A stretch of 54,327 nucleotides of DNA. Origin: a virus. Lineage: Duplodnaviria > Caudoviricetes. Below are positions 7,426-48,826 of this stretch, piece after piece. Position 1 is the first letter of the stretch. Each line of letters starts with the position of its first letter. The position numbers and the translations under genes are program-made. Location of the stretch: the IMG/VR virus record IMGVR_UViG_3300032246_002540, positions 1 to 54,327 of that record; one strand, 5' to 3'. Under the pieces are notes generated by a model. It was given only the letters and a program-made list of their open reading frames with translations. It searched no databases and was not told where the DNA came from.

Positions 7426-8034
7426 ATGCCGCATCTAGTTCCAATGGTAGTAGAAACTACTACTAAAGGCGAACGTGCCTTTGATATCTATAGCCGCCTG
7501 CTCAAAGAGCGAGTGGTAATGCTGGACACTGCTGTGGAAGATCACAGCGCAAGTCTGATCGTGGCACAGCTCTTGTATCTGGAGAGCGAAAATCCCGAAA
7601 AGGACATCTATTTCTACATCAACAGCCCAGGTGGTGTCATCACTGCCGGAATGAGTATCTATGATACTATGCAGTTCATCCGTCCAGACGTCAGCACAAT
7701 CGTGATGGGGCAGGCGTGCAGTATGGGATCGTTCCTGGCACAAGCAGGTGCACCTGGCAAGAGGTTGATGCTACCACACGCCAGACATATGATCCATCAA
7801 CCCAGCGGCGGCACACGTGGTATGCAGAGCGACATCGAGATCCAATACCAAGAGATAACCAAGATGAAGACAATGTTGACAGAACTTTATGTGCAGCACA
7901 ACACTGCGGGCAAGACCTACGCAGATTTCGAACGTGATATGGATCGCGACACGTTTATGAGTGCTAGTGAAGCTTTAGCATATGGACTGGTTGATCGTAT
8001 CATCAGCAAGCGCGAGATCACTCCTGACCGATGA
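7426..8034 (+). CDS. clpP: ATP-dependent Clp protease proteolytic subunit
   Basis: [17 protein letters not shown], catalytic ACSMG (Ser), MIHQP (His), DRD (Asp). Confidence 0.97.
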
Positions 8035-26609: not shown

Positions 26610-28826
26610 ATGACAACATTTAGTAGCAACGGCGACATCGAAAAAGTAGTGCGTTTTGCCAAGCAATTCGCTAATGAAAACTATCACGAATACTTCACCG
26701 TGGAACATCTATTGTTGAGTATGCTCCACGAGAAAAACTTTCTCAAGACCCTGGAAACGATGGGTATCAGCACTGATGAGTTGGTTTTAGAAGTAGAAGA
26801 TTATGTGCTGAACAACACTCCCATCAGGAAAATAGACCGCGAACCCCGCAAGACACAAAGCCTGGAGCGGGTATTCAATCGTGCCTTTACCCAAGTGATC
26901 CTACTGGGTCGTAACGTGATAACCATAAGTGATCTGTATCACAGCATCACCAAAGAACAACAGAGCCACGCTGCGTATTTCCTCAAGAAGTATGGTGTGG
27001 AACCAGATCTACTGGTCAAGACACTGGACAAAAACAAGAACAAAAAGGCTGGTGGATATGCAACCAAGGTCCTGGAAGAATACTGTGTTAATCTCAATGA
27101 CCAAGCTGCTGAAGGAAAGATCGATCCAGTCATTGGTCGCGAAACTGAGCTTGCTGATCTGGCGCAAATCCTGGCTCGTAAGAACAAGTGTAACGTGCTA
27201 TTGGTTGGTGATGCTGGTGTGGGCAAGACAGCGATTGCCGAAGGACTTGCACTAAATATCGTCAACGGTGACGTTCCTAAATTCCTCAAAGATAGTGAAG
27301 TTTACAGCCTGAACGTGGGACAACTGTTGGCTGGCACCAAATATCGCGGCGAATTCGAAGAACGTTTACAAGAGATCATCCAGGCAGTGACAGAACTTGG
27401 TAATGTGATCTTGTTCATCGACGAAGCACATCAGATGCGTGGTGCTGGTGGCGGTGGGCAGAGTCCAGTGGACCTGAGCAATATGCTCAAACCCAGTCTT
27501 GCTCGTGGTGCATTTAAAGTCATCGCCAGCACCACCTGGGAAGAATACACACAACATTTCGAAAAAGATCGCGCACTGATGCGTCGATTCAACCGTTTGA
27601 GCGTGGGAGAACCCACACCTGAAGTGGCAAAAGAAATCCTCCAGGGCCTTAAAATGGTCTATGAAACTTTCCACAATGTGAAAATCACAGACACAGCACT
27701 AACGGATGCGGTGGATCTCAGTGTCAGATTCCAGTCTGATAAACGACTGCCTGACAAAGCATTGGATCTGATAGACAGTGCCTGTGCTTTGCGTCGCACA
27801 CAGGCTCGCGGAAGCCGTACTATCGACAGTGCCCATATCAGACGAGAACTCAGCCGTATGACAGGCATCCCCGAAAGCCAGTTCAGCACTGATAAAAAAG
27901 AAACTATGTTGCCCACGATGGCATCAGATATCAAAGCCAAAGTTTACAACCAAGACACTGCTGTGGAGCAAGTGCTGGACCGTGTGTATGTGAGCCAGGC
28001 AGGGCTCAAAGCAGATGATAAACTAGTGGGCAGTTTCCTGTTCCTGGGCCCCACGGGTACAGGCAAGACCGAATTGGCTAAACAACTCAGTGACAAACTG
28101 GGTATGAAATTGTTGCGTTTCGATATGAGCGAGTATCAGGAAAAACACAGCATCGCCAGGCTGATCGGGGCTCCTCCTGGTTATGTGGGCTATGAAGATG
28201 CCAACCTGGCAGGTGGAATGTTGATCAGCGAAGTCAGCAAGAATCCACATTGTATCATCCTGTTCGATGAGATCGAGAAAGCACATCCTGACGTGGCACA
28301 AGTGTTGTTGCAGGTTATGGATGAAGGTTTCATCACTGGCAGCAATGGCAAGCGGGCAGATTGCCGCCAGAGCATCCTGATAATGACCAGCAACCTGGGT
28401 GCTGCTGATTCGGAAAAACTCAACATCGGATTCGGTGGCGGGCAAAAAACCGATGCTGTGGATGCAGCAGTAAAGGAGTTCTTCCGTCCAGAATTCCGCA
28501 ACCGTGTGGATGCTATCGTCACCTTCAACAAACTGGATCAGTCCACTATCCGTCAGATCGCCGAGAAGTTCATCGCGGATCTGAATACTCAGCTGGCACA
28601 ACAGAATGCTAGTGTCTCCCTGAGCGATGCTGCGATGGATTGGTTGGTCAAGAAGGGTTACAATCCTGCGATGGGTGCTCGTCCCATGTCTCGTTGTATC
28701 CACGAAAACATCAAAGTGCCGTTGGCCAAGAAACTATTGTTTGACAAAAACAGCAGCCATGCTAATATAATTGTAGATGTATCTGACGATAAACTTGAAC
28801 TTATCAGCAACTCAACCAAACACTAA
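26610..28826 (+). CDS. clpA: ATP-dependent Clp protease ATP-binding subunit ClpA
   Basis: N-domain HEYFTVEHLLL; two AAA+ modules (GDAGVGKT/FIDEAH, GPTGTGKT/LFDEIEK); IGF ClpP-docking loop; 738 aa. Confidence 0.93.
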   Translation: MTTFSSNGDIEKVVRFAKQFANENYHEYFTVEHLLLSMLHEKNFLKTLETMGISTDELVLEVEDYVLNNTPIRKIDREPRKTQSLERVFNRAFTQVILLGRNVITISDLYHSITKEQQSHAAYFLKKYGVEPDLLVKTLDKNKNKKAGGYATKVLEEYCVNLNDQAAEGKIDPVIGRETELADLAQILARKNKCNVLLVGDAGVGKTAIAEGLALNIVNGDVPKFLKDSEVYSLNVGQLLAGTKYRGEFEERLQEIIQAVTELGNVILFIDEAHQMRGAGGGGQSPVDLSNMLKPSLARGAFKVIASTTWEEYTQHFEKDRALMRRFNRLSVGEPTPEVAKEILQGLKMVYETFHNVKITDTALTDAVDLSVRFQSDKRLPDKALDLIDSACALRRTQARGSRTIDSAHIRRELSRMTGIPESQFSTDKKETMLPTMASDIKAKVYNQDTAVEQVLDRVYVSQAGLKADDKLVGSFLFLGPTGTGKTELAKQLSDKLGMKLLRFDMSEYQEKHSIARLIGAPPGYVGYEDANLAGGMLISEVSKNPHCIILFDEIEKAHPDVAQVLLQVMDEGFITGSNGKRADCRQSILIMTSNLGAADSEKLNIGFGGGQKTDAVDAAVKEFFRPEFRNRVDAIVTFNKLDQSTIRQIAEKFIADLNTQLAQQNASVSLSDAAMDWLVKKGYNPAMGARPMSRCIHENIKVPLAKKLLFDKNSSHANIIVDVSDDKLELISNSTKH

Positions 28827-31117: not shown

Positions 31118-31132
31118 CCAGATAAATATCTG

Positions 31133-32233
31133 ATGCGTATAAGAGAAATTATCACAGAGGCAGAAGCAGTAGATATTACTGGGCGAACTCCTCATCCTGA
31201 AGATGCCATCTTCGACGGCAGCAGCCACGCCGCACGTATGATACAGGCTCTCAGCAGTGTGATTAAAAATCCCGGCAGTCTCACAATCAAATGGGATGGC
31301 TTTCCCGCACTTATTTTCGGCAGATTGCCTGACGGTCAATTTACCGTTATGGACAAATATATGTACGACAATCCCCAGGGTCGTATCACTAGTGCCCAGG
31401 GTTGGGTAGACTATGACAACGCACGTGGAAAACCACGTCCTGACCTGTACCCTAAAATTGCCAACATCTGGGCAGGTTTGGAACAGGCTGTGGGAACCAG
31501 TCCTGGTTTTTACTGGGGCGATTTGCTGTGGAGCGATCCGCTCGCACCTGCACAAGGCAAATTTGTATTCCGTCCCAATCCCTGGGGCGTTACCTACAGC
31601 ATCGATGTCAACAGCGATCTGGGCAAACAGATCACCGGCAGACAGGGTGGCATTGTGGTACACACATTCATACCCAGCGATGGCGCACAACCGCAGCCTT
31701 GGAACGGTCAAGGCCTTAATATGAACACGCCAGTTGCAGTGTTGACGCCCAGTGCTAACATCGCTTTCACATTGAAAGATCCTGTGAAACTACGCAACAC
31801 TGCATCAGCAGTGCTGCAAAAAAATGGTGCTCTGGCAGATCAGTTCATGGCAGGACTGGACGACAAAGGTCGTATGGCTGTAAAGCAGTATGCCAACAAA
31901 TTGATCACCAAGCAAACAAACGACAGTATGGACAAATGGATAGTTAATGCCAACTTTAGCCAGAAACTAAAAAAGTTCTTGTTGGGTGAAAACAAAGATG
32001 GTTATCTGTATCAGAACAGCAAAGGCCTGGATGCCATATTCGCCATCTGGAATGCCATATACGCATTCAAGATAAACGTGACGGAACAGTTGGAAAAGCA
32101 GGTCAAAGGCATAGATCAGAGCATCAATGGGCAACCGGCTGGGGAAGGATTTGTTTTCAGCACACCGCAAGGACCAGTCAAGCTGGTAAATCGTGGCGTG
32201 TTCAGTGCGGCATTGTTTGCCAGAGGCGGTTGA
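31133..32233 (+). CDS. ligase-like nucleotidyltransferase (KxDG) with capsid-targeting-like N-terminus
   Basis: MRIREIITE start; HPED, TIKWDG (motif I), GEGFVF (motif IV), VKLVNR (motif V). Confidence 0.6.
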   Translation: MRIREIITEAEAVDITGRTPHPEDAIFDGSSHAARMIQALSSVIKNPGSLTIKWDGFPALIFGRLPDGQFTVMDKYMYDNPQGRITSAQGWVDYDNARGKPRPDLYPKIANIWAGLEQAVGTSPGFYWGDLLWSDPLAPAQGKFVFRPNPWGVTYSIDVNSDLGKQITGRQGGIVVHTFIPSDGAQPQPWNGQGLNMNTPVAVLTPSANIAFTLKDPVKLRNTASAVLQKNGALADQFMAGLDDKGRMAVKQYANKLITKQTNDSMDKWIVNANFSQKLKKFLLGENKDGYLYQNSKGLDAIFAIWNAIYAFKINVTEQLEKQVKGIDQSINGQPAGEGFVFSTPQGPVKLVNRGVFSAALFARGG

Positions 32234-32234
32234 T

Positions 32235-34313
32235 ATGAAAGCCAAACAGATATTCGAAGATGCACATCACACAATTTGCATTTATCCAGGCAGATTCCAA
32301 CCTCCCCACCGCGGACACGCAGCCACATATCGTTTGCTTGAAAAGAAATACGGACAGGAAAACACGTTCATAGCTACCAGCAATAAAACTGATGGCGACA
32401 AGAGTCCCTTCGATTTTGCAGAAAAGAAAGCACTGCTGATTGCTGCTGGCGTACCAGCTGAGCGCATAGTACAAGTGGTAAACACATACAATGCAACAGA
32501 AATAACCAGCCAATATGATCTGTCACACACTGTTGTGTTGTATGCAGTGGGGGAAAAGGATATGGGCACTGATCCCAGATTCAGCAACTTTGTTAAAAAA
32601 GACGGCACTCCCACTTATCTGCAACCTATGATTCCTGAGCCCGAAACTGCTGACAATCACGCCTATCTTATCATCGCTCCCACAGTTGAATTCAAGATGA
32701 ACGGCAAGCCCATCACTAGTGCTAGCGAGATAAGGCAGATGTTCAAGGACGCCGATCCCGCAGAACGTGCAGACATAGTGCATCAGTTGTATGGCATGGA
32801 CACAGCCAGCGTGTTGAAGATCTTCGAGAAAAAGCTGATGCCAGAGCATCCTGTGCAGGACTATATCAATACTAAAAATCCTGTCAAACCTGCTAAAAAG
32901 AAAAACAAGAAACAAGAACTGGAACTTCCTGAAAACTACACTATGGAGCAGTTCGATCGCATACTGAACAATATCATTCTTGAAGCATACAGCAAAGCGG
33001 AACCAGAAAAAGAACCTGTACATCCTGGTTCTAAGATAGATCCTGATACACTGATAGATCCTGATCTAGGAGCAGTACCTGCTCGCAAACCTGTTAGCAA
33101 ACAAAGCAACAGCAATGATGAATTAGAAAAAGAACTACAAAAGCGCATAGGCGAAAACTTCAAGGACGGCCGTCATCCCGAACACAAGGGTGACAGCCAG
33201 CGCCACGGTATCCCCAAGGGTGCTACTATGGCACAGGATAAAAGACTTAGTATTCCGGAAGTTGACCTTCATTATGATCCTAAATTCAAACTATCCACAC
33301 ATATGTATGACAAGGGATATGGCGTTACACCTCCTACTCAGTGGTCTGACGTCGGCAAAGATATGGTTATAAATCCAGATAAACCTACCATTATTGTTCC
33401 AGGCGGGAAGAAACAAATAGCGCCTGGCATCAAAGGCATGTTGAAGCAGCAGGGACGACAGCAATACGATCCAGGTACATATAAAGATTATCATCGCACT
33501 GCTTATAGTCAGGAAGATCCGGATGACATCGATACAGATGATACAGAGATGATCCAGGAACCTGTAGACGAGAACTTTGCAGATGGCAAGGGACCAGGTC
33601 GTCCGGGAGACAGCCAGCGCCACGGCATACCCAAACACGCCAGCGTCAGCACATTACGCAAGATAGCTAAACAAGGCGGCCGCAAAGGCCAGTTGGCTCA
33701 CTGGCAGGCTAATATGAAAGCCGGCAAGAAAAAAGCCAACGAAGAAACCATTTACAACTGGGCGGCAGTGCCCAATAAGCCTGTTCCAGCAGCACCGGTG
33801 GATATGCGTGGTGTTAAAATCCAATCTGTGTTAAAAAAATTACATGAAACCGATCAGCAGCTGATGGACGAAGGCATATTCGATGCCATAGGTAGAGGTT
33901 TATATGGAGCCGGCGCAGTAGACAGCGGTGCCGAAGCCTTGGACGCTATCAAACAGGGCGATTGGCAGACAGCACTAGGTGCTGGTTTGGAAGCTGGTGG
34001 TAGTGCGTTGGGTATGTTACCCAAATTCAGTCTGCCCACCGCTCTAGGTGGTGTGGCATTGAGTGCATTGGGATCAGCTATAAAACCTGCCCCCAAATAT
34101 CAGAATGGTTTACCTGTCCCAGATCATACACAAGCTGGAACAAAAACAGCAGGCAGGGCACCTGTGGATGTACCCAATCCTCCTATCATCAGGGATCCCG
34201 GAGCAGGCAGTGCTGCACCGAACACCACACCTGATAGCAGCACCAGCCCCAATCTAAGCACCAATAAACCCAAACCCGCTGTGAAAAAACCTCGTGCTCC
34301 AATAGCTAGTTAG
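32235..34313 (+). CDS. multi-module protein: N-terminal HxGH nucleotidyltransferase plus several small modules
   Basis: MKAKQIFE start; PGRFQPPHRGH, SPFDF, SASEIR; then basic/acidic modules with a duplicated ENFxDG..GDSQRHGIPK. Confidence 0.7.
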   Translation: MKAKQIFEDAHHTICIYPGRFQPPHRGHAATYRLLEKKYGQENTFIATSNKTDGDKSPFDFAEKKALLIAAGVPAERIVQVVNTYNATEITSQYDLSHTVVLYAVGEKDMGTDPRFSNFVKKDGTPTYLQPMIPEPETADNHAYLIIAPTVEFKMNGKPITSASEIRQMFKDADPAERADIVHQLYGMDTASVLKIFEKKLMPEHPVQDYINTKNPVKPAKKKNKKQELELPENYTMEQFDRILNNIILEAYSKAEPEKEPVHPGSKIDPDTLIDPDLGAVPARKPVSKQSNSNDELEKELQKRIGENFKDGRHPEHKGDSQRHGIPKGATMAQDKRLSIPEVDLHYDPKFKLSTHMYDKGYGVTPPTQWSDVGKDMVINPDKPTIIVPGGKKQIAPGIKGMLKQQGRQQYDPGTYKDYHRTAYSQEDPDDIDTDDTEMIQEPVDENFADGKGPGRPGDSQRHGIPKHASVSTLRKIAKQGGRKGQLAHWQANMKAGKKKANEETIYNWAAVPNKPVPAAPVDMRGVKIQSVLKKLHETDQQLMDEGIFDAIGRGLYGAGAVDSGAEALDAIKQGDWQTALGAGLEAGGSALGMLPKFSLPTALGGVALSALGSAIKPAPKYQNGLPVPDHTQAGTKTAGRAPVDVPNPPIIRDPGAGSAAPNTTPDSSTSPNLSTNKPKPAVKKPRAPIAS
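33153..33635 (+). repeat. duplicated ENF(K/A)DG...GDSQRHGIPK module
   Basis: Copies start at 33153 and 33570; identical 17-mer GACAGCCAGCGCCACGG at 33192 and 33609. Confidence 0.85.
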
Positions 34314-34339
34314 TACTGCTCTGCTAGATAAATAATTCT

Positions 34340-37300
34340 ATGAGCACCATATTTGACAAGTATAATCTTCATCGCCACATAATCGCAGAAGAACAGGATC
34401 TTTTGGAAGTCAACATGAGCCCAGGTGCTCTCAACGACTTCGCCAAGAGCGAATCAGCACAAGGTATGACCATCGGTTTCGAGATGGAACTAGTGATGAA
34501 TGATTTGCCTGACGAAGGGGGTTATAGTGGTGAGTCAGAAACTGAAGCTGACATGGAATATAACGATGACTTTCCCACTGGTTCAGGTTGGCGCAATGAT
34601 GTCATATCCTGGTTGGAAGGGGGCGATAATCCCAACGGTGATCGTGATGTTGAACGGACAATGGAATGGTTTGACGAACAGTTCTTTGAATATGCAGACG
34701 AGATGTTTGCTAATGCGTTAGATGAAGATGAGGATCTCCAAGAAGAAGTAAGAAAGGAGATTCATGATATCCTTGCACTTCAAGATAAACCAAGCGATAC
34801 AGATGCAATAGCTGCTGAATATGATGAACAGACTGACATTTATACTGACGCAGTTGATAGAGTCAAAGAAGGTTGGCAAGAAAACGAAATAGATAATGCG
34901 TTTGATGATTTCCGCAGACAATATCGCATCAGGGACATGGAAGATTTCCTCAATTATGTAAACCGTAACCATCCCCGCATCAGTCTAAACTGGCCTTACA
35001 TCACTTATTCTGGGGGCAATGGAGAAGGTGGCGATCTGGGAGATTATCTGCAAGATGTAGCTAATGAACTGGAAGTTAAATTAAAGAGAGTCAATAGTGC
35101 TTTCTATGTGGTGGTTAGCCAAGACTATCATGATGAAAGCAGAGAAGAAAACAAATTCATCATAGAGCCAGACGGCAGCATCAGTCCTCAGGGCAGAGAG
35201 TTCATTAGTCCAGCTATGCCGTTTGCAGATGGCATCGCAGCTATGCAAGTGATGTTCCAGTGGGCTCAGAACCAAGGTTATAAAACCAACCATAGCACTG
35301 GTTTCCATATGGGTATCAGCTTGCCCAATCACGAAACACAGAACATCGACCATATGAAATTCGTGCTGATGCTGGGGGATAATTATGTGCTGGAAAAATT
35401 CAATCGTGCCAAAGCACACTATGCAGTCAGCACCGCTGCCACTATGCGCGACACACTCAAAAGGAACAGCCAGGTCACAAAAGAACAGGTTGCTCAATAC
35501 CTGAGACAGATGGCAGATGGTGTACAGGATCTGGCTACGGCCGAACTGAACAAGCTGCTGGTACCTAGAGGCGAGCATCGCCAGAGCGTGAACATCAAGA
35601 AAAACTATATGGAGATCCGTTCAGCTGGCGACAACTATCTGCCCAGATTCGACGAGATCCGCCTCACACTGTTACGCTATCTCAAGACACTGGAAATCAG
35701 TGCAGACGATCAGGCATATCGCAAAGAATATGCCAAGAAGCTGAGCAAATTCCTGACCAATACCAATATGATCCGCACAGTGGATCCCATCACTGGTCGC
35801 AAGAGCGTGGCTGCTAAAGAAAGCCTGGATGCCACGGTACAACGGGCTTTCGAAGAATACTTTTCAGCACTCCAGCGCGGTGAATCGGGCGATGAAGCTA
35901 TCCAGAAACTCACAGAAAAATTAAATTCCTACAAAGGCGATAAGGTAGGCCAACTTAAACAACAACTGCGTAGCAAACGAGCTAATAATGATCCCAGTGC
36001 TACCAAGCTGAAATATCAGGGCAGCGACCGTGTGGAATTTTCAGCCACGGGCAGTGCTTATGATGTGCTCAACAGTTTCATCGAACAGCTGAGAGATGCT
36101 GGTATGGGTGTACAGCACGAAAAAGCCATGTATATAGAGGCTCCCAAAGGTCAGATATTATACAACGTGGAATTCCGATATCGTGCATCCACTCGCGAAT
36201 TTAGTTATTGGTGCTTTGCCACTGATAAACGCGGAGCGATGGAACAAGCCAAGAAAGCCTGGAACACTGGTGCAGATCAACCTGGCGACAGTTGGTTAGC
36301 ATACGAGCAGACAGGAGATAACCAGAGCCTTTACTATATCCTGAGGCACTACTTGGACAGCAACAAGACACCTCCGGCTTTACCAGTTGATCGCACTACA
36401 GGTAGTCCCGCACAGGCAGAACAGCCTGAGGAAAGGCCCATTACATACAGCTTGCGCGGTCTTGATGATCGTGGTATCGTTACTTTTACCACCACTAACG
36501 ATCAATCTGCCCTAGATGCTGCTAATCGGTTCATAAGCCAACATAGCCAGTATAACTATAACAACGTAGAGTTGTTTCGTTATGCGAATGATGGCGTGAG
36601 CAGACAACCTGTCAATCTATTCAATCATACATCTCTTGGTAATGCACAAGAGCAACCAGCACAAGCTAACATACCCGCTTGGTCGCCCAACGCACGAGTC
36701 GCATACCAGCTGGTAGACAGGAATGGCAGTCCTATAACAGCCTTCACAGATGGCGCCCGCATACCTACTAACAGCCTCTTCTACGCTGCTGATAGCTTAG
36801 AAGCAGTTCGTCGTGCTGCAGATCTGGATAGGATCCATGGCCTACCGCAAGGATATCGGGTTAGACCGTTCGGTGGACCTGGCAGTGGCAGTGGTGGCCA
36901 GTCCCAGGCCAATACAGCAGGTACAAGTGAAACCTACATCATCACCTATCGTGATCCACAAGGCCATGCACATCAGACTGCTTATGATGCTAACAGCGAT
37001 AGAGAAGCAGAAGCATTGTTCATGCGACAGCATCCTGCCGGCTATTGGATAGAAGCGATTGTCACTCAACAGCAACATTCAATCGAGGGCACTCCAGGTA
37101 CGTTTATCGTGACTTATCTTAGCCCTCAAGGTAATGAGCAGCAAACCACATATAATGCCAATAGTGCTACCGAGGCTGCATCCTTGTTCCGTATTCACCA
37201 CCCGGCCAGCTATCGCTTACACCAGATAGAAAGAGTGCGAGAGAGCGTAGGTGAAAGCGCAGAAGTCACAGAAACTCTGAAGAAAGTCAAAGGAAAATGG

Positions 37301-38275
37301 GCTCTGGTCAGTAGACAGAATCCAGAAAAAGTGCTACAATACTATCATGGATCAGGTCACCCCAGCAAAGAATGGGTAAGCAAGGTGGAACGCAGAGTAC
37401 ACAGTTTCGAAAGCACTCTAAACGAATATGATGTCCGCGGTTACACGCTGAAAAGTGTATTTCCAGACGGTGACATACAGGTTAGCGGTCACGTGTTGGA
37501 TCGTGCAGATGAGTATCACGTCAGCAAGCGTGAGATAGACACCTGCTTGCATCTGGCTGGACAAAAATATCAGAGACGTTTGTTCGATCTGGAAAATGTA
37601 AACTTTGTCGTCCGCAGCCATGGCGTGGGAATAAGCCTGGCTGTGAGCAAAGTGGAAGGAATAAACGGATACTACTATAAAGTCCGCACACTGCACAGAC
37701 AGCTGAGAACAGGTGTGGGCCAGGACGTATTGATGGTGGAAGACAGTTTCCCCGCCCACCAACCTTTCCGTGTGTATCTGGATATGGACGGCGTGCTGGC
37801 TGATTTCTTCGGCGAATGGAGCAGATTGTCTGGTGTCAATCACTACAAAGACATAGCAGATGTGGGTGCAAAGCTACAGATGGTCAGAGAACATCCCACA
37901 TTCTGGACCAACCTGCCAGTGCTACCACACGCCAAGACACTGGTACGTGCTGTGATAGATATGTTCGGTGAATATTACATTTGCAGCAAGCCGCTGGAAG
38001 GCGATCCTCGCAGCGCACCAGGCAAACGTGCCTGGATACAGCGTAACCTGTCGGAAATGCCACCAGCTGACATCGTGCTTACCAGCAACAAGGCGGAGTT
38101 TGCTACCACTGAGACTGGCCCAGCCATATTGATAGATGATTATGGCATCAATGTGAATCAGTGGCAGATGGCTGGTGGTATCGGTCTTAAATACGAAGAC
38201 ACTCCCGCAGGCACCAACTTGTCACACGTACTCAAAGTGTTGCAAACGTTCGCCAAAGCAGGAAGCCAACTATGA
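34340..38275 (+). CDS. polyvalent protein: amidoligase-like domain, small repeats, possible BECR-like module and C-terminal HAD 5'(3')-nucleotidase
   Basis: IGFEMEL, EPDGSI, EFISP, STGFHMGIS, EIRSAG; YLDMDGVLADF...GKRAW...LIDD. Confidence 0.7.
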   Translation: MSTIFDKYNLHRHIIAEEQDLLEVNMSPGALNDFAKSESAQGMTIGFEMELVMNDLPDEGGYSGESETEADMEYNDDFPTGSGWRNDVISWLEGGDNPNGDRDVERTMEWFDEQFFEYADEMFANALDEDEDLQEEVRKEIHDILALQDKPSDTDAIAAEYDEQTDIYTDAVDRVKEGWQENEIDNAFDDFRRQYRIRDMEDFLNYVNRNHPRISLNWPYITYSGGNGEGGDLGDYLQDVANELEVKLKRVNSAFYVVVSQDYHDESREENKFIIEPDGSISPQGREFISPAMPFADGIAAMQVMFQWAQNQGYKTNHSTGFHMGISLPNHETQNIDHMKFVLMLGDNYVLEKFNRAKAHYAVSTAATMRDTLKRNSQVTKEQVAQYLRQMADGVQDLATAELNKLLVPRGEHRQSVNIKKNYMEIRSAGDNYLPRFDEIRLTLLRYLKTLEISADDQAYRKEYAKKLSKFLTNTNMIRTVDPITGRKSVAAKESLDATVQRAFEEYFSALQRGESGDEAIQKLTEKLNSYKGDKVGQLKQQLRSKRANNDPSATKLKYQGSDRVEFSATGSAYDVLNSFIEQLRDAGMGVQHEKAMYIEAPKGQILYNVEFRYRASTREFSYWCFATDKRGAMEQAKKAWNTGADQPGDSWLAYEQTGDNQSLYYILRHYLDSNKTPPALPVDRTTGSPAQAEQPEERPITYSLRGLDDRGIVTFTTTNDQSALDAANRFISQHSQYNYNNVELFRYANDGVSRQPVNLFNHTSLGNAQEQPAQANIPAWSPNARVAYQLVDRNGSPITAFTDGARIPTNSLFYAADSLEAVRRAADLDRIHGLPQGYRVRPFGGPGSGSGGQSQANTAGTSETYIITYRDPQGHAHQTAYDANSDREAEALFMRQHPAGYWIEAIVTQQQHSIEGTPGTFIVTYLSPQGNEQQTTYNANSATEAASLFRIHHPASYRLHQIERVRESVGESAEVTETLKKVKGKWALVSRQNPEKVLQYYHGSGHPSKEWVSKVERRVHSFESTLNEYDVRGYTLKSVFPDGDIQVSGHVLDRADEYHVSKREIDTCLHLAGQKYQRRLFDLENVNFVVRSHGVGISLAVSKVEGINGYYYKVRTLHRQLRTGVGQDVLMVEDSFPAHQPFRVYLDMDGVLADFFGEWSRLSGVNHYKDIADVGAKLQMVREHPTFWTNLPVLPHAKTLVRAVIDMFGEYYICSKPLEGDPRSAPGKRAWIQRNLSEMPPADIVLTSNKAEFATTETGPAILIDDYGINVNQWQMAGGIGLKYEDTPAGTNLSHVLKVLQTFAKAGSQL
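36932..37230 (+). repeat. tandem ~50-aa repeats within the polyvalent protein
   Basis: TYIITYRDPQG..QTAYDANSDREAEALF..HPAGY vs TFIVTYLSPQG..QTTYNANSATEAASLF..HPASY. Confidence 0.8.
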
Positions 38276-38285
38276 GGGCTAATAA

Positions 38286-38546
38286 ATGTACAGCGACCAT
38301 CATGTCTGGGATCAAATATACAACATTTGTTTAACTTATACCGATACAACGCCTGCAATAAAAACTACAGATATCAAGAAAAAAGCTGCTAGATATCTGG
38401 CTATGGATCAGAAATCCAAGATAACCAAAAGCGATCAGAGACGCATCTGTGCCAAAGCAAAAAAAATCAAAAAACACAGTGAAAAGATGCTGAAACTACA
38501 GGAACAACTGATGGCTAAAAAAGTCATACAGGTTTATAATGGATGA
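38286..38546 (+). CDS. basic hypothetical protein
   Basis: GAGG SD; Lys-rich. Confidence 0.55.
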   Translation: MYSDHHVWDQIYNICLTYTDTTPAIKTTDIKKKAARYLAMDQKSKITKSDQRRICAKAKKIKKHSEKMLKLQEQLMAKKVIQVYNG

Positions 38547-38880
38547 TTTTGATTTTTACGTTATCCTGAGACCAGTTGATAAAATTAAAACAAAATTTTA
38601 TAGAGTGTATGCTTTTGTAAAAAAAGACAATCATGCTCATAGACAATTATTGGTAGAGCGAGATTGTACTGGATTAAAAGACAATCAGTGGATCATAGAG
38701 AGATTTACCTTGCGCCTAGATAAAACCAATGCCAAAGTAAATCTGGTATGCGAAGCAAATGATGGATCTTTGGAAATCTATGAAGTTGCCTATAATGGTG
38801 GCAAATTTTTTAATATTTTAAACACTAATCTCTACTCCTTTAACGCTTATCAGATTGATTTCAATTTAACATGTTCATAA
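38539..38880 (+). CDS. hypothetical protein (AT-rich)
   Basis: Overlaps the upstream gene; visibly lower GC. Confidence 0.55.
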   Translation: MDDFDFYVILRPVDKIKTKFYRVYAFVKKDNHAHRQLLVERDCTGLKDNQWIIERFTLRLDKTNAKVNLVCEANDGSLEIYEVAYNGGKFFNILNTNLYSFNAYQIDFNLTCS

Positions 38881-38906
38881 TAAATATGCTAAGAGGAAAA
38901 TAACCT

Positions 38907-40211
38907 ATGGCATACACTATCAAAGACAATCCAATTCATGGTAAACTGCTAGCAGATAGCAAAAATAAGATAGTTGTCACAGACTATAAAAAAGCTGTGC
39001 AACTGGCAGAAAATTACAGCGGTATCAATGTATTGAAAGCAAGTCCTGGCCGATTCATGGTACAGTTACCTGAACACGTCAACAGCATAGAAGAATGTGA
39101 TTGCCAGAACAACGATATCAGCTATTCCAGTGGTATGCCTAATCCTGCTAGTTACAACCAATATCCTGATCACGAAGTACAGATGGCCAGACAGGAATTG
39201 TATCGCACAGCCAAGCTGGCCATGATGACACACGAATTGCTCAAGCACGTGGGCGAGCGCCAGGGCCTGGAAGGCTGGGTGCAGAGCAAACTGACTCGCG
39301 CAGCGGATTACATCGAGACAGTATATGGCTACTTGGATTACGAGATGCGCTATCCCAGCGAAATGTACGAATCAGCGCCAGTAAAAAAAAACAAAGGCAG
39401 AATAAAAGAAGCGATTAAACCCATAACACCATTACCCAGACTGGGCCCAGCCCCACGAGGTATGGAAGGCAGTCCCATCACACTCAGTACAGAAGATCCA
39501 CAGAATCCCGGTCGTCCTCCCATCAGGGCGGAAAAGGTGCCAGGAATGGTCAAGATGGTACCAGTGGATGACAACGGTCAAGCAGAAGGTCCGCCCATCG
39601 ATGTTCCTGGTTTCGAAGTGGCACTGAAGCAGAAAGCCGGATACAAAGTGATCGGTGAGATGGCCAGTGCCGGTGCAAGCAGTGCCGGTGGTATGGCTGG
39701 CAGCCCAGCAGCTGGTGCAGGCAGTTTGTTTGGAGGTAATTTCCAACAACGTGGCAATCCTTTCCGTAAAAAGAAGAAAAAAGTGCGTGAAGTTATAATG
39801 AAACCAGAAGATATGTCTGATGAAAAACAAGACAGGATCAATAACAATAGACCGGAAGACACCACTGATATAATCAACAGGATGAAAACTAACCGTGCTA
39901 TGGATACGTTTCAATCTGGAATGCCCGACATCCTAAAACAAGTGAAAAAAGTCCGGGAAACAGATGATGATCCATTGGTGAAAAATCTGCCACCCATCAA
40001 CACCACAGGTGACAATAGCCGTACTGCCAAATTGGCCGCTGCTGCCACAGGTAGCACAGCGGCAACCCCTGCCGCTACAAACAGCCGTAAAAGCGCACAA
40101 GATTTCATGAAGATGGATACAAAAGAAAGCAGCACTGGTCCCAAATTCACTGGCTATTGGAAAGGCAAAGACAAGGGCAAGCCCGGCAACAAGATGGTAG
40201 GAAGCAACTGA
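38907..40211 (+). CDS. multi-module late protein (candidate polyprotein)
   Basis: TAAATA 38881-38886 and GAGG SD; modules separated by IEE, MYE, IKE, IGE, VRE, VRE; includes EVQMARQEL..LEGWVQSKLTRAADY. Confidence 0.7.
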   Translation: MAYTIKDNPIHGKLLADSKNKIVVTDYKKAVQLAENYSGINVLKASPGRFMVQLPEHVNSIEECDCQNNDISYSSGMPNPASYNQYPDHEVQMARQELYRTAKLAMMTHELLKHVGERQGLEGWVQSKLTRAADYIETVYGYLDYEMRYPSEMYESAPVKKNKGRIKEAIKPITPLPRLGPAPRGMEGSPITLSTEDPQNPGRPPIRAEKVPGMVKMVPVDDNGQAEGPPIDVPGFEVALKQKAGYKVIGEMASAGASSAGGMAGSPAAGAGSLFGGNFQQRGNPFRKKKKKVREVIMKPEDMSDEKQDRINNNRPEDTTDIINRMKTNRAMDTFQSGMPDILKQVKKVRETDDDPLVKNLPPINTTGDNSRTAKLAAAATGSTAATPAATNSRKSAQDFMKMDTKESSTGPKFTGYWKGKDKGKPGNKMVGSN

Positions 40212-40212
40212 T

Positions 40213-41013
40213 ATGAGAGCATATGAAATTATCACAGAAAATTTTGACAAAAGCCATGGCAGTGCCTATGATTGCGGCGGTGCAGACAGCTGGTATGGCC
40301 GCAGATTTGCTCCACACAAATATGTTGAAATGCCAAATGGCAACCGCCAACGTGTGGAATTGACAGATCCCGAAGAGATAGCTGCATACAAGGCAGGCTA
40401 TGAGGCTGAAGGCGGTCAGGGTAAAAATTATGGCGAAAGCGTAACAGAAGCGGCTAACGCTGCACAACAGGCCGCTATCGCAATCAGCATGAAGAAAGCT
40501 GGCAAGAAACCCAAACGCAAGATGAAAGAGGATGAAGAGCAAAGCTCATATCCCACTGATGCTCCCATCGGCACCAAATACGGCAGTTTCAGGACACCAG
40601 GTGGTGTCAAGATGAACAAGTTCACAGGACCTGAAATGGTACCTGATATCAGACCTGCCAGGTTAGGCGCCCCCAAGGCACGTTTTCCAGTCGATGCACC
40701 AGTAGGCACCAAATATGGCAGCTTCACTGATAAGGATACTGGTGAACAGATGGACAAGTATGTGGGCCATGAGCTGACACCACACTTCCAGCCTCGTAGC
40801 AAGGGTCCTTGGATACCCAAACCCGACGATACGGCAGCACAAGGTACACCAGCGCACGACGAAGCCACTTTTAAAACCACAGAGAGCGCAAAAAAAGGCC
40901 TGTATTATAATGTAAATAAACGTAAGGAAAAAGGCACCAGTCGCAGCAAGAACGATCCTGGAGCACCCAGCGAACAGGATTGGAAAAACGCCGCAAAGAC
41001 TGCTAAAAAATAA
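40213..41013 (+). CDS. multi-module protein with capsid-targeting-like N-terminus
   Basis: MRAYEIITE start; VTE-AANAAQQAAIAI, MKE, TTE-SAKKGLYYN modules; internal duplication. Confidence 0.7.
   Translation: MRAYEIITENFDKSHGSAYDCGGADSWYGRRFAPHKYVEMPNGNRQRVELTDPEEIAAYKAGYEAEGGQGKNYGESVTEAANAAQQAAIAISMKKAGKKPKRKMKEDEEQSSYPTDAPIGTKYGSFRTPGGVKMNKFTGPEMVPDIRPARLGAPKARFPVDAPVGTKYGSFTDKDTGEQMDKYVGHELTPHFQPRSKGPWIPKPDDTAAQGTPAHDEATFKTTESAKKGLYYNVNKRKEKGTSRSKNDPGAPSEQDWKNAAKTAKK
40549..40773 (+). repeat. internal duplication (Y/F)PxDAPxGTKYGSF...MxKxxGxE
   Basis: YPTDAPIGTKYGSF..MNKFTGPE and FPVDAPVGTKYGSF..MDKYVGHE; GGCACCAAATA(C/T)GGCAG(T/C)TTC at DNA level. Confidence 0.85.
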
Positions 41014-41024
41014 GGAATAGTAAT

Positions 41025-41171
41025 ATGGCCAAAGCACCCAAGCAAACTGTAATACAAAAAAGAATAAGTGTTAATAAGAAAACAAGTCAGGGTTTGGGTA
41101 ATATCAAGATGGCCAGTATGAACAAAAAAACCAAAGCCAGCTTTAAAAAGTACAGAGGACAAGGCAAATGA
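41025..41171 (+). CDS. small basic protein (48 aa, not in the ORF track)
   Basis: AAGGA SD; MAKAPKQ...SMNKKTKASFKKYRGQGK*. Confidence 0.7.
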   Translation: MAKAPKQTVIQKRISVNKKTSQGLGNIKMASMNKKTKASFKKYRGQGK

Positions 41172-41608
41172 GTGATATGCGTGAATTGATCGACAGATTG
41201 ACTGCAATCAGTGAAGATCGTCCTGCCAAAGGTGATGGTATCTATCTGGAGTTTGGCAACACTCTCTGTGTGGAATCAGAAATCATCGATATCACAGAAT
41301 CAGGTGATTTTATCATCAGTGGGGATGACAGATTCATGCGTGTTGTGGAAAGCCTGGAACTCATGGAAGCTGAGTATCATGGTCGCAAAGTGCCTCTGAA
41401 CAAGCCTATGCGCGGCGATGTTAAGAAAAGCAAAGTATACGTCAAGGATCCCAAGACAGGTAACATCAAGAAAGTCAACTTCGGCGATAAAAAGATGCGT
41501 ATCAAGAAAAGCATCCCTGGTCGTCGCAAAAATTTCCGTGCCAGACATCATTGTGAAAATCCCGGACCCAAGACCAAAGCCAGATATTGGAGTTGCAGGG
41601 CCTGGTAA
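41168..41608 (+). CDS. two-module protein (acidic module + basic Cys/His module)
   Basis: MSDMRELIDRLTAISE start; LME-AEYHGRKV..VNFGD..FRARHHC..ARYWSCRAW. Confidence 0.75.
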   Translation: MSDMRELIDRLTAISEDRPAKGDGIYLEFGNTLCVESEIIDITESGDFIISGDDRFMRVVESLELMEAEYHGRKVPLNKPMRGDVKKSKVYVKDPKTGNIKKVNFGDKKMRIKKSIPGRRKNFRARHHCENPGPKTKARYWSCRAW

Positions 41609-42147
41609 TGAGAGCAACAGAATTCATCACAGAAGCAGATGCTGTTGCTAAAAAACCTGCTGCTCCGGCTGCAGAAGTTAACCCTGAAAGCAATTTTGGT
41701 ACCGCTGTACAAAATGCCATAGGCAGTGCCATCAAGAACAGCCCTATAGGCAGTGCTATCGATACGGTAGACGCCATCCGCAAAGGCGATGTGGGCGGCG
41801 CTGTGGGGTCTGCTGTTGGTGGCGTAGGTAGGACCGCAGGCTATGCTTTGGGTGGCCTTCCTGGATTGGCTGTTGGTTCAGCATTAGATGCTGCTGGCAA
41901 CGCTATCAAAAACACTACTACTGGAGGGGCTGCACAGGTCAATCCCAATAAGCCAACAAAACCCAAGAAGATAGCCGAAGCCAGCGGTCACATTCCCAAG
42001 GACGAAGAAGAAGCAAAAGATCCCCGCTACAGCAATGCACTGACTGTGGACATACATCCTGGCGAAGATGCCAAACAAGCAGCCAAATTAGGGTTCCAAT
42101 TAGACAACGGTCGCCCACCACTTCTAAGCACGTCAGGCAAACGATGA
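41608..42147 (+). CDS. protein with capsid-targeting-like N-terminus and Gly-zipper module
   Basis: MRATEFITE start; GxxxG-rich segment; IAE-ASGHIP second module. Confidence 0.7.
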   Translation: MRATEFITEADAVAKKPAAPAAEVNPESNFGTAVQNAIGSAIKNSPIGSAIDTVDAIRKGDVGGAVGSAVGGVGRTAGYALGGLPGLAVGSALDAAGNAIKNTTTGGAAQVNPNKPTKPKKIAEASGHIPKDEEEAKDPRYSNALTVDIHPGEDAKQAAKLGFQLDNGRPPLLSTSGKR

Positions 42148-42932
42148 GTGTCCTGGAATACAATCGTAGCATCAACCCCCTGAGAGAATCCAAACATACA
42201 GATTATCACGGTCCCAGTGACAGTGCAGAAAACCGTCGTGCCAACTATACCGGCCCAGAATACACATACAGATTCAATGATCAGGGATTTAGATCTCCCG
42301 AACTAACACCCAATGATCCCTGTATAGTCAGTTTTGGATGCAGTATCACTATGGGTCAAGGCGTACCAGAAGAAAAAAGATTTGCCAATTTGTTAGCAGA
42401 AAGATATGATCTGAACCATTACTGCTTTGCAGCTGGCGGCAGTGACAACTTGTGCATTTTTAAAAATTTCACAAGTTTTTTCAAAAATAATCTGGAAGGT
42501 TTGGATACCAAGTTAGTGGTAATATTGTGGAGTTTTCCCAGTAGAGTAAGCATTTGCAAATTAGATGCAAAAGGTTTACCTTGGGAACGTACTTTAGTAA
42601 ATGACGAATCATATCCTGACGATGATGAGCTTGCTGATTTTCACCTTGGTTGGATCAATCATAGTGCCGATCTTTATACACTGCAATTTATCAAAGCAGC
42701 AGATATCATTGCTAAACTAGCAGGTATAAAATTGGTGCAGCTTTGTATCGAAGATATTAAAACCCCCTATCTGCCTATAGACAGTTTCCATAGTAAACCC
42801 GATTGGTACAAGCATCCTTCCTTGTTAGGTATCGTGGATCTGGGCAGAGATATACATCCAGGTATGGCTAGCCATCAAAATATTGCAGATATAATTATAG
42901 ATATTTGCGATATGCAACAGTGGCGATTTTGA
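42144..42932 (+). CDS. SGNH/GDSL hydrolase-like protein
   Basis: FGCSITMG, GGSDN, D..HPG..SH. Confidence 0.6.
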   Translation: MSVLEYNRSINPLRESKHTDYHGPSDSAENRRANYTGPEYTYRFNDQGFRSPELTPNDPCIVSFGCSITMGQGVPEEKRFANLLAERYDLNHYCFAAGGSDNLCIFKNFTSFFKNNLEGLDTKLVVILWSFPSRVSICKLDAKGLPWERTLVNDESYPDDDELADFHLGWINHSADLYTLQFIKAADIIAKLAGIKLVQLCIEDIKTPYLPIDSFHSKPDWYKHPSLLGIVDLGRDIHPGMASHQNIADIIIDICDMQQWRF

Positions 42933-42942
42933 TAAATAAAAT

Positions 42943-43296
42943 ATGCGTGTAAGAGAAATAACAGAAGCTGTGATGAGTGTGGGCATACAAGGTCGTAGCC
43001 CAGTGAGTCCAGGCGCACGTGGTTTGATGGCCAGTCGTTGGAAGTACAAGACTGTCACAGATGCAGCAGAACCTGTGAATATGAAAAATGCTGTAGCTAG
43101 GCTAGCTGCCAAATTGGATGACGTGGAAAAGATCGATTACGACAGCATAAATGATCTGATGCAACAGATTTGTATGACACAGGCCATAGACCCCAAAGAT
43201 CTACATAAAGAATTTGTCAAAAAATATAATTTGACTCCTGATCGTTATGCTGTTAAATTAAAGCATGATAGAAAAAACAGACCCCGTAGCGTTTAA
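42943..43296 (+). CDS. protein with capsid-targeting-like N-terminus
   Basis: MRVREITE start, ATG 4 nt after TAAATA; DYDSINDLMQQI..DLHKEFVKKY..TPD. Confidence 0.7.
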   Translation: MRVREITEAVMSVGIQGRSPVSPGARGLMASRWKYKTVTDAAEPVNMKNAVARLAAKLDDVEKIDYDSINDLMQQICMTQAIDPKDLHKEFVKKYNLTPDRYAVKLKHDRKNRPRSV

Positions 43297-43450: not shown

Positions 43451-43890
43451 GCACCACAGCCTACGACGATCAATTTGTAACAATAAACACTCACGGCAGT
43501 GGAAGCGGTGCTGGAACAACCTATACCGGATATGGTGCTGTTCCACCATTAGGTGCCGGCGCTGTTGGTGCCACTGGTAGTTTTTCAATTCCAAGTGGAA
43601 CATTAAGTATTGGTAGTAATAGTCCACAGTGGAGCAGTATAGGTTCAGGATCAACATCAATGACCACAAGTATCTTAAGTATAATGGCTGAGGGCGATGG
43701 TGACGCTATGATCAAAACCAAGAAGAATACCATCAACCTGGACCAGATGGCCACTATGATGGAAACCGTTAAAGAACGATTGCTGATCTTGGCACCAAAT
43801 TTCGAATTACATGAAAAATATCCAGCACTTAAAGAAGCCTATGAACACTACAAAGTGTTGGAAGCAATGATGGCGGCCGACGATAAATAA
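43447..43890 (+). CDS. hypothetical protein (G/S/T-rich N-terminus)
   Basis: GAGGAG SD; C-terminal KYPALKEAYEHYK module shared with 9500..9826. Confidence 0.65.
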   Translation: MSTTAYDDQFVTINTHGSGSGAGTTYTGYGAVPPLGAGAVGATGSFSIPSGTLSIGSNSPQWSSIGSGSTSMTTSILSIMAEGDGDAMIKTKKNTINLDQMATMMETVKERLLILAPNFELHEKYPALKEAYEHYKVLEAMMAADDK

Positions 43891-43893
43891 TCG

Positions 43894-44184
43894 ATGCTGC
43901 CAGTAACACTTAATGAATATGCACTAGATAATCTGAGTTTGAGCCATTGCCTGCGTCGTACTCGCACCAGTCCCAGGTACAACGTGCAATTAGTGGAATC
44001 AGGTATCCGTATCACAGATAATGAACACTTCGACATCTGTCTCACAAGCGATTTCCAATATGTAGAGGGCGCACCTGTATTCGTGTACAAAACTCTCAGC
44101 GAAAGCTGTGCATACAGCAAACGCCAGGAAATCACGGACTGGCTGGAAAGAGCTAAGATTAAATTTGAATCCGGCTACATTTAG
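43894..44184 (+). CDS. hypothetical protein
   Basis: ATG 4 nt after TAAATA (43884-43889). Confidence 0.55.
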   Translation: MLPVTLNEYALDNLSLSHCLRRTRTSPRYNVQLVESGIRITDNEHFDICLTSDFQYVEGAPVFVYKTLSESCAYSKRQEITDWLERAKIKFESGYI

Positions 44185-48094: not shown

Positions 48095-48826
48095 ATGAGA
48101 GATTATCTATTAGACATTGTGGAACACGTACTGCCCACTGGTGTATTGAGTCTGGTCAAAGTCACTGGCACCGATAAGACAACAACCTTGGCATCAGCTG
48201 ACACCAGCAACGTGCTGTTGCTCAACGCCACGTTCCACGAACCACATCCTGATTTTGAAGGTGTGTTTGGTTTGCCCAATCTGCCCAATTTGAACACCAT
48301 CCTTAATATTCCTGAATACAGGGAAAATGCAACCATTTCCATCGTGAGAGAAAATGTGGATGGCGAACAAAAGCCACGCAGCATCCAATTTAAAAATGCC
48401 AATGGTGATTTCAACAACAACTTCCGTTTGATGTTGGACTACTTGGTTAAAGATAAAATCAAAGACATCAAATTCAATGGTACTAATTGGAACATCACAC
48501 TGGAACCCACTGTGGCTAGCATCAGCAGATTGAAATACCAGTCGCAGGCTCACAGTGAATATGAAAATTTCACTATCAAAACTGATGGCAGCGATTTGAA
48601 ATTTTTCTTTGGTGATCCCAGTGGACACGCTGGTAATTTCACATTCCAGAGCGGTGTGGCAGGAAAAATTACCAATAGCTGGGAATACCGTGTGACACTA
48701 TTCCAGTCTATCTTGAATCTGTCGGGCGATAAAGTGGTACAGTTCAGTGATGATGGTGTGATCCTTATCACTGTAGACAGCGGCTTGATCAAATACGAAT
48801 ACTACCTGCCAGCATTGACAAAATAA
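48095..48826 (+). CDS. probable DNA sliding clamp (gp45-like)
   Basis: 243 aa alternating beta/alpha pattern ending YEYYLPA; lies downstream of PolB, and a clamp loader is encoded in the window. Confidence 0.6.
   Translation: MRDYLLDIVEHVLPTGVLSLVKVTGTDKTTTLASADTSNVLLLNATFHEPHPDFEGVFGLPNLPNLNTILNIPEYRENATISIVRENVDGEQKPRSIQFKNANGDFNNNFRLMLDYLVKDKIKDIKFNGTNWNITLEPTVASISRLKYQSQAHSEYENFTIKTDGSDLKFFFGDPSGHAGNFTFQSGVAGKITNSWEYRVTLFQSILNLSGDKVVQFSDDGVILITVDSGLIKYEYYLPALTK

Follow-up and report, generated by a model that had tools for sequence, protein, structure and literature searches.

Positions 31133 to 43296 of the window analysed here (54,327 bases, i.e. the whole of the IMG/VR record IMGVR_UViG_3300032246_002540, from a virus of the Caudoviricetes) hold a block of 12 open reading frames (ORFs), hereafter the island, several of which begin with nearly the same eight or nine residues, and the longest of which code for strings of small domains. 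What is this common start for, and what becomes of the proteins that bear it? A preliminary description of the sequence had proposed that the proteins are packed into the phage head as polyproteins, cut by the prohead protease after hydrophobic-x-Glu and injected with the DNA. As judged from sequence comparison, the leaders are supported as a common, transferable N-terminal tag of the type of the capsid-targeting sequence (CTS), or propeptide, of phage T4. The tag, the protease in the clade and the homologues in virions bore out that proposal, and the internal joints bore it out in part. It is likely that the leader-bearing proteins are head proteins from which a propeptide is removed; the entire course of targeting, leader removal, joint cutting and delivery with the DNA is slightly favoured, and toward internal cutting of the long chains we are mildly sceptical. 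Targeting, every cleavage, ejection and any role in the host are inferred. ORFs are named below by the position of their first base.

The strict leader pattern, M[RK]..[EQ][ILFVM].{0,2}E, was written after looking at the data. It was matched by 5 of the 60 gene N-termini in the window, all five between 31133 and 42943, and the leaders described earlier at 31133, 32235, 40213, 41608 and 42943 were thus confirmed (for their sequences, see Table 1). When all 672 Met positions in the six frames were considered, the matches were again five, each on the + strand and at a gene start; none of the 341 internal Met matched, and the number expected from composition was 0.022 (P = 3e-11, which is too good because the pattern was defined after the data had been seen). 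Looser forms are MSDMRELIDRLTAISE at 41168 and HIIAE within the first 17 residues of the 34340 protein. The statement that most genes of the interval carry the leader was an overstatement, the 12 ORFs comprising five strict and two loose leaders (at best 7 of 12). The leaders are 8-9 residues long, slightly below the range of the T4 propeptides, and end in I/F-x-E (I-T-E in three). Their Arg codons differ (CGT in two leaders, AGA in two); thus, the conservation is on the peptide. At 32235 and 41608, the start codon overlaps the stop codon of the gene in front, and the orthologues use the same Met. A secretion signal was ruled out, since the leader is short, charged and without a hydrophobic stretch, and a leader of a ribosomally synthesized and post-translationally modified peptide, to be acted on by a radical-SAM enzyme, was dismissed since the putative cores are enzymes of hundreds of residues. 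Outside the island, a 243-residue protein at 48095-48826 (phrog_12062, unknown function) starts with MRDYLLDIVE, which matches the loose pattern only.

The leader recurs in related contigs. A search with the 31133 protein gave 76 viral loci; in these loci and the window (about 1 Mb) the strict pattern had 81 matches (49 distinct), all on the coding strand, and 47 of the 49 distinct matches were the first ATG of an ORF, the bodies behind them being many and unrelated. In the region of G001 (a 345-kb viral record, 99% complete) that is syntenic with the island, the starts MRAQEFITE, MRAQDFIVE, MRAQEFIVSE, MRLREITE and MRFNELQE were found, and the orthologue of the 32235 protein in L001, a relative of 78% identity, starts with MKADQIFE. 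The loose pattern was matched at 117 of 1213 gene starts (9.6%) versus 163 of 5298 internal Met (3.1%). The consensus of the leaders is M-[RK]-I-x-E-I-[IL]-[LTV]-E, the commonest length is 9 residues, and in 59 of 95 distinct leaders the Glu is followed by A, S, G or N. Twenty-two of the 28 cluster representatives with a leader were scanned against PHROGs (the four of the window itself and two from L001 were left out); three fell into virion structural protein families, one was endolysin-like, two belonged to families of unknown function, 16 had no match, and none fell into replication or transcription families. One protein of the related loci, Syn9 gp186 (L119:4988-5716), starts with MLTFKQLSE and has the nearly identical LLTFKQFNE in its middle, an internal copy of its own leader. 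Two others (L110:5005-6378 and L101:3955-6147) are leader-led module chains with a sigma-70 region-4 domain (PF04545, E 6e-7) and a peptidoglycan-binding domain (PF01471, E 1.6e-18).

In T4, proteins are directed to the prohead core by propeptides of 10-19 residues, which gp21 then cuts off; residues 4 and 7 are needed for targeting and residues 8 and 10 for processing, Asp in place of the P1 Glu prevents processing without affecting targeting, and the CTS has been suggested to let T4-like phages load varied proteins (passages of PMC9026906). The corresponding T4 starts (NC_000866) are MKTYQEFIAE-A for ipII and ipIII, MKTFKEF...ITE-A for ipI, MAKINELLRE-S for gp24, MLKEQLIAE-A for gp22 and ...SFLTE-AEIGG for gp23. 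The island resembles T4 IPI, IPII, IPIII and Alt in its short leader with hydrophobic-x-Glu followed by a small residue, in having some basic cargo and in its putatively late genes, and the protease is of the same family, here in relatives. The island leaders differ from those of T4 in their length of 8-9 residues, the Arg or Lys in second place and the Glu in fifth, and the predicted cargo includes large enzymes and multi-module chains of 266-1311 residues. When T4 IPI, IPII and IPIII were compared by BLASTP with the 12 island ORFs and three neighbours, the best E was 0.34 and the bodies showed no resemblance; the island appears to work like the T4 system while lying outside the IP protein families.

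The source of the window is an uncultured jumbo phage of the T4 superfamily with a genome of roughly 350 kb, of which the window is estimated to be 15%. Nearly all genes of the window are on the + strand, and it also codes for a clamp loader, PhoH, MazG, baseplate-type and virion proteins, a true ClpP and a Clp ATPase. The closest named relatives of its family-B DNA polymerase are jumbo phages Phosso, Atu_ph07 and GAP32 (44-50% identity); G001 has homologues of most window genes, in unchanged order (66% identity for the polymerase), and the island had no DNA match by megablast among 50,697 phage records. Because the window is only about 15% of the genome, the protease was deduced from relatives. 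G001 has, one after another, genes for a portal of the T4 type, a prohead protease of the S77 (gp21-like) family, a scaffold and a capsid protein resembling gp23. Where the T4 capsid protein is cut (FLTE then AEIGG), that of G001 reads YLKE then NASAG, and that of cyanophage S-CREM2 reads LLTE then APTQ; thus, the L-x-E rule seems to hold in these lineages. An S77 match was obtained in 5 of 10 related records, namely in three of the four that are at least 90% complete and in two of the six less complete ones (G010, 76% complete, among them); the four fragments without a match are 29-69% complete, so that these misses are uninformative. Note that the capsid gene of G001 (L092, about 193.2-194.5 kb, - strand) is read as two ORFs of 301 and 89 residues, which match residues 74-391 and 422-478 of T4 gp23; an intron, a homing-endonuclease insert or a frameshift is possible. 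In S-CREM2, a gene annotated as intron-encoded endonuclease adjoins the capsid gene.

Homologues of the island proteins are found in cultured phages and in purified virions. The pair of DUF6267 gene (31133) and nucleotidyltransferase gene (32235) is syntenic in the T4-like cyanophages ACG-2014e, C48C1 and Syn9, and pelagiphage HTVC008M and methylophage Melnitz have a cassette composed of a nucleotidyltransferase chain with leader (596 and 650 residues, respectively), an apparent homologue of 38907 and a stand-alone NT5C with its own leader-like start. The cytidylyltransferase gp154 of S-CREM2 starts with MKNFSSFLTE then A and has a PF01467 match; mass spectrometry of CsCl-purified virions gave three of its peptides, with 11.2% coverage (PMC10665884, Table 3). 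The NMNAT ORF91 of cyanophage S-SCSM1 starts with MKSFLQFLKE then A, and this protein and its neighbours ORF89, 90, 92, 93 and 97 are annotated as virion proteins; NMNAT-like proteins recur in cyanophage virion proteomes (passages of PMC9602691).

As for the long chains, their module joints were proposed to fall on hydrophobic-x-E, and this was borne out for five module families compared across contexts. Directly upstream of the NF.DG module, hydrophobic-x-E was found in 6 of 6 distinct contexts (MAE, LNE, IEE, IGE, VDE, MKE), at the upstream edge of GGWD likewise in 6 of 6, and within 2-4 residues of GLYYNVNKRK in 6 of 7. In the DUF6267 family, it stands 4-11 residues from PRIPHPED in 23 of 23 proteins, whether stand-alone or fused behind a 270-residue domain. 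It precedes the KV.LNKP module in 3 of 3 contexts and also in HTVC008M (LEE-AEF), Melnitz (MME-SEY) and immuto (LDE-GEY). Of seven viruses outside the T4 type (podoviruses, a siphovirus-size pelagiphage and an archaeal spindle-shaped virus), five have KV.LNKP as a separate gene starting with M-A-x-Y-x-G, with the Met in the register of the P1 Glu; therefore Ala directly follows the Met, as a cut would predict. In L001, the nucleotidyltransferase chain continues in frame into the body of the 34340 protein, the homology beginning at residue 18 of the latter, directly after HIIAE, with KVDE at the junction. Fixed repeated linkers such as QGVAE then G are also found in relatives. The KV.LNKP...RARH.C...YWSC module (41369-41605) occurs in 27 phage records of very different kinds, including pelagiphage and roseophage podoviruses and two spindle-shaped (archaeal) viruses of Nitrosopumilaceae, and in one of the records it is annotated as an HVA1 family protein.

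A number of results, given in this and the following paragraph, tell against the proposal, and the first group concerns the joints. The triplets that had been named as module borders are present, and about 9 of about 25 have any comparative support; as a class, hydrophobic-x-E is no commoner in the island proteins than in the rest of the window (71 in 4020 residues, or 1.77 per 100, versus 201 in 12138 residues, or 1.66 per 100), which the preliminary description had itself named as speaking against it. Compared with their own shuffles, only the 32235 protein had an excess (15 versus 8.1), and the 1311-residue protein had none (22 versus 22.6). An excess of Glu at the borders did not come out of a blind test of 1064 left ends of BLAST alignments among 3783 ORFs, in which Glu stood at position -1 in 4.9% versus a background of 5.1%; the test is weak and noisy because spurious ORFs and fuzzy BLAST ends were included. 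The module contexts given above were chosen by eye after inspection, and some may be of shared ancestry; the border Glu might be a residue of the module itself and mark no cut. The occurrence of KV.LNKP in podoviruses and an archaeal spindle-shaped virus implies that such modules are not head proteins by nature. The density at background, the lack of excess in the longest chain and the negative blind test favour the alternative that the leader is a true head tag and is clipped, and that the long chains remain uncut, as multi-domain cargo in the manner of Alt, DarB and the polyvalent proteins, a documented class (PMC5512222, in its passages on them); internal hydrophobic-x-E would then be ordinary features of helices and linkers and remnants of gene fusion, and the motif does lie inside the well-folded DUF6267 domain, at residues 286 and 318. 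We consider this unlikely. It is opposed by the motif, which in five module families borders the module upstream in almost every context, with P2 variable and the residues further upstream unrelated, by the cut-predicted register of the stand-alone copies in viruses not of the T4 type, and by the repeated fixed linkers.

The second group of adverse results concerns the leader and the head. Five of the 12 island ORFs (38286, 38539, 38907, 41025 and 42144) have no leader, no island protein resembles IPI or any known anti-restriction protein, and S77 protease, capsid and portal genes are absent from the window, itself a 15% fragment of the genome. No S77 match at E 0.01 was found in G003, a complete relative. 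Where DUF6267 is fused behind another domain, the residues in front of it (..ARFRSIVIE..) can be aligned with the leader, so that the leader of this family could be an old N-terminal helix. The link of the 32235 domain to the virion-detected cyanophage proteins consists of weak BLASTP matches of E 0.001-0.004 and a shared Pfam match just above the cut-off, since tblastn of this domain against phages gave matches in two records only, and carry-over of abundant proteins through CsCl purification is allowed for in passages by the authors of PMC9602691. If the leader instead served translation start on very short late 5' ends, binding to another assembly or recognition by the ClpP and Clp ATPase of the phage itself, the proteins would be cytoplasmic metabolic or DNA-binding factors. 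This reading gains from the true ClpP and the Clp ATPase coded in the window, from the place of the cyanophage cassette among replication genes, and from the G001 orthologue of the nucleotidyltransferase, which has no leader. It gains also from the motif GATAAATA, which stands 4-5 nucleotides before the start codons of four genes, the first codons of which could be selected for initiation. The late-promoter-like TAAATA lies directly upstream of 31133, 34340, 38907 (at 38881) and 42943. A conservation at the level of amino acids with differing Arg codons, the fit of the pattern to authentic gp21-processed N-termini of T4 and the leader-bearing homologues in purified virions oppose it, as does the finding that 63 of 90 leader genes have no TAAATA nearby; we judge this reading quite improbable. 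In the relatives, TAAATA occurs within 40 nucleotides upstream of 27 of 90 leader genes versus 180 of 1122 others (Fisher p 0.002), and the spacing from motif to ATG falls into two classes (about 4-9 and about 16-32 nucleotides); of its copies in the window, 24 are on the + strand and 5 on the - strand. If GATAAATA is a late promoter of the T4 type, a spacing of 4-5 nucleotides is too close for a Shine-Dalgarno-led transcript, so that the late mRNAs may be leaderless or the motif may have a different role. The fourth such site, motif and ATG, is at 43882-43896.

A third alternative is cutting at the Glu sites by a protease other than the prohead protease, such as a Clp-type enzyme of host or phage, before or after packaging. 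The ClpP gene at 7426-8034 and the lack of an S77 gene in the window speak for it. ClpP degrades processively and is not known to make single cuts after Glu, its gene is far from any head gene, and the syntenic relatives have S77 beside the portal, scaffold and capsid genes; we regard the alternative as very improbable. ClpP as the head protease was ruled out, being a full-length true ClpP beside a radical-SAM gene and, in G001, away from the head genes. The ClpP protein matches PF00574 over its full length (E 6.6e-78), and the gene directly after it (8031-9503) codes for a 490-residue radical-SAM protein. The Clp ATPase (26610-28826, 738 residues) has Clp_N, two AAA modules and a ClpB D2-small domain, and the identities to G001 are 69% for ClpP and 52% for the ATPase.

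In the reading that we prefer, the 12-kb block would be a variable head-cargo region, the genes of which are transcribed late. The leader would carry the protein into the assembling prohead, as the CTS does for the T4 internal proteins, and the S77 gp21-like prohead protease would remove it after the Glu. The same protease would probably cut exposed hydrophobic-x-Glu joints in the long chains, and such cuts would release the NMNAT-like nucleotidyltransferase, the 5'-nucleotidase, the amidoligase-like domain and several small, very basic peptides; the ligase-like enzyme would be a separate leader-tagged protein. The cargo would remain with the packaged DNA and accompany it into the cell.

Several parts of this are already known, namely the CTS with gp21 and the variable CTS-bearing internal proteins of the T-even phages, and capsid-delivered polyvalent proteins have been predicted. 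The variable T-even proteins resemble the island in that the genes change fast and share a leader in front of differing bodies; they are single small proteins, whereas here modules move between stand-alone genes and long chains, and the system is found from jumbo phages and cyanophages to a pelagiphage and a methylophage. The original paper on this fast-changing gene set with a common leader is reportedly that of Repoila et al. from 1994. In phages phiKZ, 201phi2-1 and SPN3US, many head proteins are cut after Glu by a prohead protease related to gp21 of T4; some are cut more than once, and the proteins lie embedded in the DNA and are ejected (passages of PMC9026906, PMC5694885, PMC10052503 and PMC7411985). 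Their cut motif is S/A-x-E, not hydrophobic-x-E, they belong to a different phage lineage, and the passages on them describe no common N-terminal leader and no modules that move at cut sites. The polyvalent proteins combine unrelated enzyme domains within a single polypeptide, and their packaging into the capsid and delivery along with the DNA have been predicted (Iyer et al. 2017, PMC5512222, in the passages concerned); unrelated domains are combined here, too, in 32235 (nucleotidyltransferase and basic modules) and 34340 (NT5C, a weak amidoligase-like domain and repeats). According to the same passages, polyvalent proteins are thought to process themselves by a built-in peptidase such as MPTase, whereas no peptidase family was found with Pfam, PHROGs or NCBIfam in the island proteins, the joints of which fit an external prohead protease and many modules of which are tiny basic peptides. 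The NMNAT-like virion proteins of the cyanophages (S-SCSM1 ORF91, S-CREM2 gp154 and that of S-CBWM1) are like 32235 in Pfam fold, gene neighbourhood and leader-like start; in the passages of their papers that concern them, they are not tied to a capsid-targeting leader or to protease joints, and the module tail of the window protein is much longer. Among the titles and abstract openings listed by searches of the literature on capsid targeting and T4-like internal proteins, none ties such leaders or joints to enzymes or module chains of marine or jumbo phages.

A wider proposal, which we hold tentatively and consider on balance the less probable outcome, is that the prohead-protease site serves as a universal joint: any module behind a leader or a hydrophobic-x-Glu would be loaded and freed, so that recombination could shuffle modules between genes and long chains with delivery kept, over the whole range of phages named above. 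The cargo would be a toolkit for the first minute of infection, consisting of NMNAT-like, ligase-like and nucleotidase enzymes and basic peptides by the dozens, with a sigma-factor region-4 module in relatives, and it might counter host defences that deplete NAD or cut RNA. The CTS of T4 is a textbook device known for a handful of small coliphage proteins. If the reading preferred above holds, abundant but uncultured phages of aquatic habitats would employ the same device much more widely, for enzymes as well as for multi-module chains. This would provide a simple sequence rule to predict capsid-borne proteins of uncultured T4-type phages, would explain the recurrent NMNAT-like enzymes in cyanophage virions, and would point to a pool of proteins active in the first moments of infection as well as to natural tags and joints with which foreign proteins could be loaded into phage heads.

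The features of the island are listed in Table 1.

Table 1. Coordinates of the island genes and of the late-promoter-like motif in the window
Feature	Coordinates	Strand	Remarks
DUF6267 protein, 366 residues	31133..32233	+	Leader MRIREIITE then Ala; PF19782, E 5e-29
NMNAT-like chain, 692 residues	32235..34313	+	8-residue leader MKAKQIFE then Asp; start overlaps the 31133 stop
1311-residue chain	34340..38275	+	17-residue N-terminal piece ending in HIIAE; repeated small domains; C-terminal NT5C
Two small ORFs, 86 and 113 residues	38286..38880	+	Without leader; without family match
434-residue basic protein	38907..40211	+	Isoelectric point (pI) 9.3; without leader; C-terminal FTGYWKG module
266-residue protein	40213..41013	+	Leader MRAYEIITE then Asn; basic AANAAQQAAIAI module behind VTE; GLYYNVNKRK module at residues 223-266
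48-residue very basic protein	41025..41171	+	pI 11.5; without leader
146-residue protein, phrog_7595	41168..41608	+	16-residue leader-like start; acidic spacers; KV.LNKP module behind LME
179-residue protein	41608..42147	+	Leader MRATEFITE then Ala; Gly/Ala-rich module, then module behind IAE
262-residue protein	42144..42932	+	Without leader; homologue in the G001 island
117-residue basic protein, phrog_10346	42943..43296	+	pI 9.7; leader MRVREITE then Ala
GATAAATA late-promoter-like motif	31121..31128	+	4 nucleotides before the ATG of 31133
GATAAATA motif	34327..34334	+	5 nucleotides before the ATG of 34340
GATAAATA motif	42931..42938	+	4 nucleotides before the ATG of 42943

The 31133 protein is probably an ATP-dependent nucleotidyltransferase of the RNA/DNA-ligase-like type, because K53, D55 and G56, which belong to motif I (K-x-D-G) and include its catalytic Lys, do not vary among 18 homologues and ligases are among the best structural matches of its model. 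The AlphaFold2 model (from the alignment of 18 sequences) had a predicted local distance difference test score (pLDDT) of 88, with residues 1-17 below 50 and outside the fold. With VIA-align, 25 of the 28 top chains were RNA or DNA ligases (Z 5.0-7.5, i.e. middling), the best being 5cot_A (Z 7.5, root mean square deviation 3.9, 179 residues aligned); Foldseek gave nothing at E 0.001 or better (best E 0.099), and the sequence search against PDB gave nothing meaningful.

The 32235 chain consists of a cytidylyltransferase/NMNAT-like domain (about residues 9-204), basic NF.DG...RHGIP modules from residues 308 and 447 and a Gly-rich tail. Its N-terminal domain matches PF01467 with 23.4 bits (cut-off 21) and has the H-x-G-H motif as PHRGH at residues 24-28; assignments to NMNAT are weak (E 0.047 against PDB, and 19 bits in NCBIfam, far below the cut-offs). 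In the 34340 chain, residues 1141-1292, behind LMVE, are an NT5C 5'-nucleotidase (PF06941, 28 bits with a cut-off of 24.8; phrog_2643, E 4e-16), residues 269-349 (35144-35386) match Amidoligase_2 weakly (E 0.0014, 19 bits, below the 22-bit cut-off), and phrog_33777 spans residues 303-475; in the viral contigs searched, no loci related to this protein were found.

The remaining island proteins are small and mostly basic, with short modules that recur in many marine phages. The 38907 protein resembles the cassette protein of HTVC008M and Melnitz in a W.Q.K.T.A.DY block seen by eye without alignment, and its FTGYWK module stands behind a leader in L110. The 41025 protein has weak similarity to the virion protein ORF93 of S-SCSM1 (E 0.004), the KV.LNKP module of 41168 covers residues 68-146 (pI 10.8), and the module behind IAE in 41608 is common to a 695-residue protein of G001. 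The main text of the phAPEC6 paper, including part of its table of 62 virion proteins, does not contain 'cytidyl'. In this phage and in GAP32, the nucleotidyltransferases (gp393c, L120:2486-3019, and GAP32_069, L121:2486-3043) have 177-185 residues without leader or module tail, the fold beginning at the start. The gene in these enteric jumbo phages adjoins a Dam methylase, and the protein forms a natural contrast to the leader-bearing marine forms.

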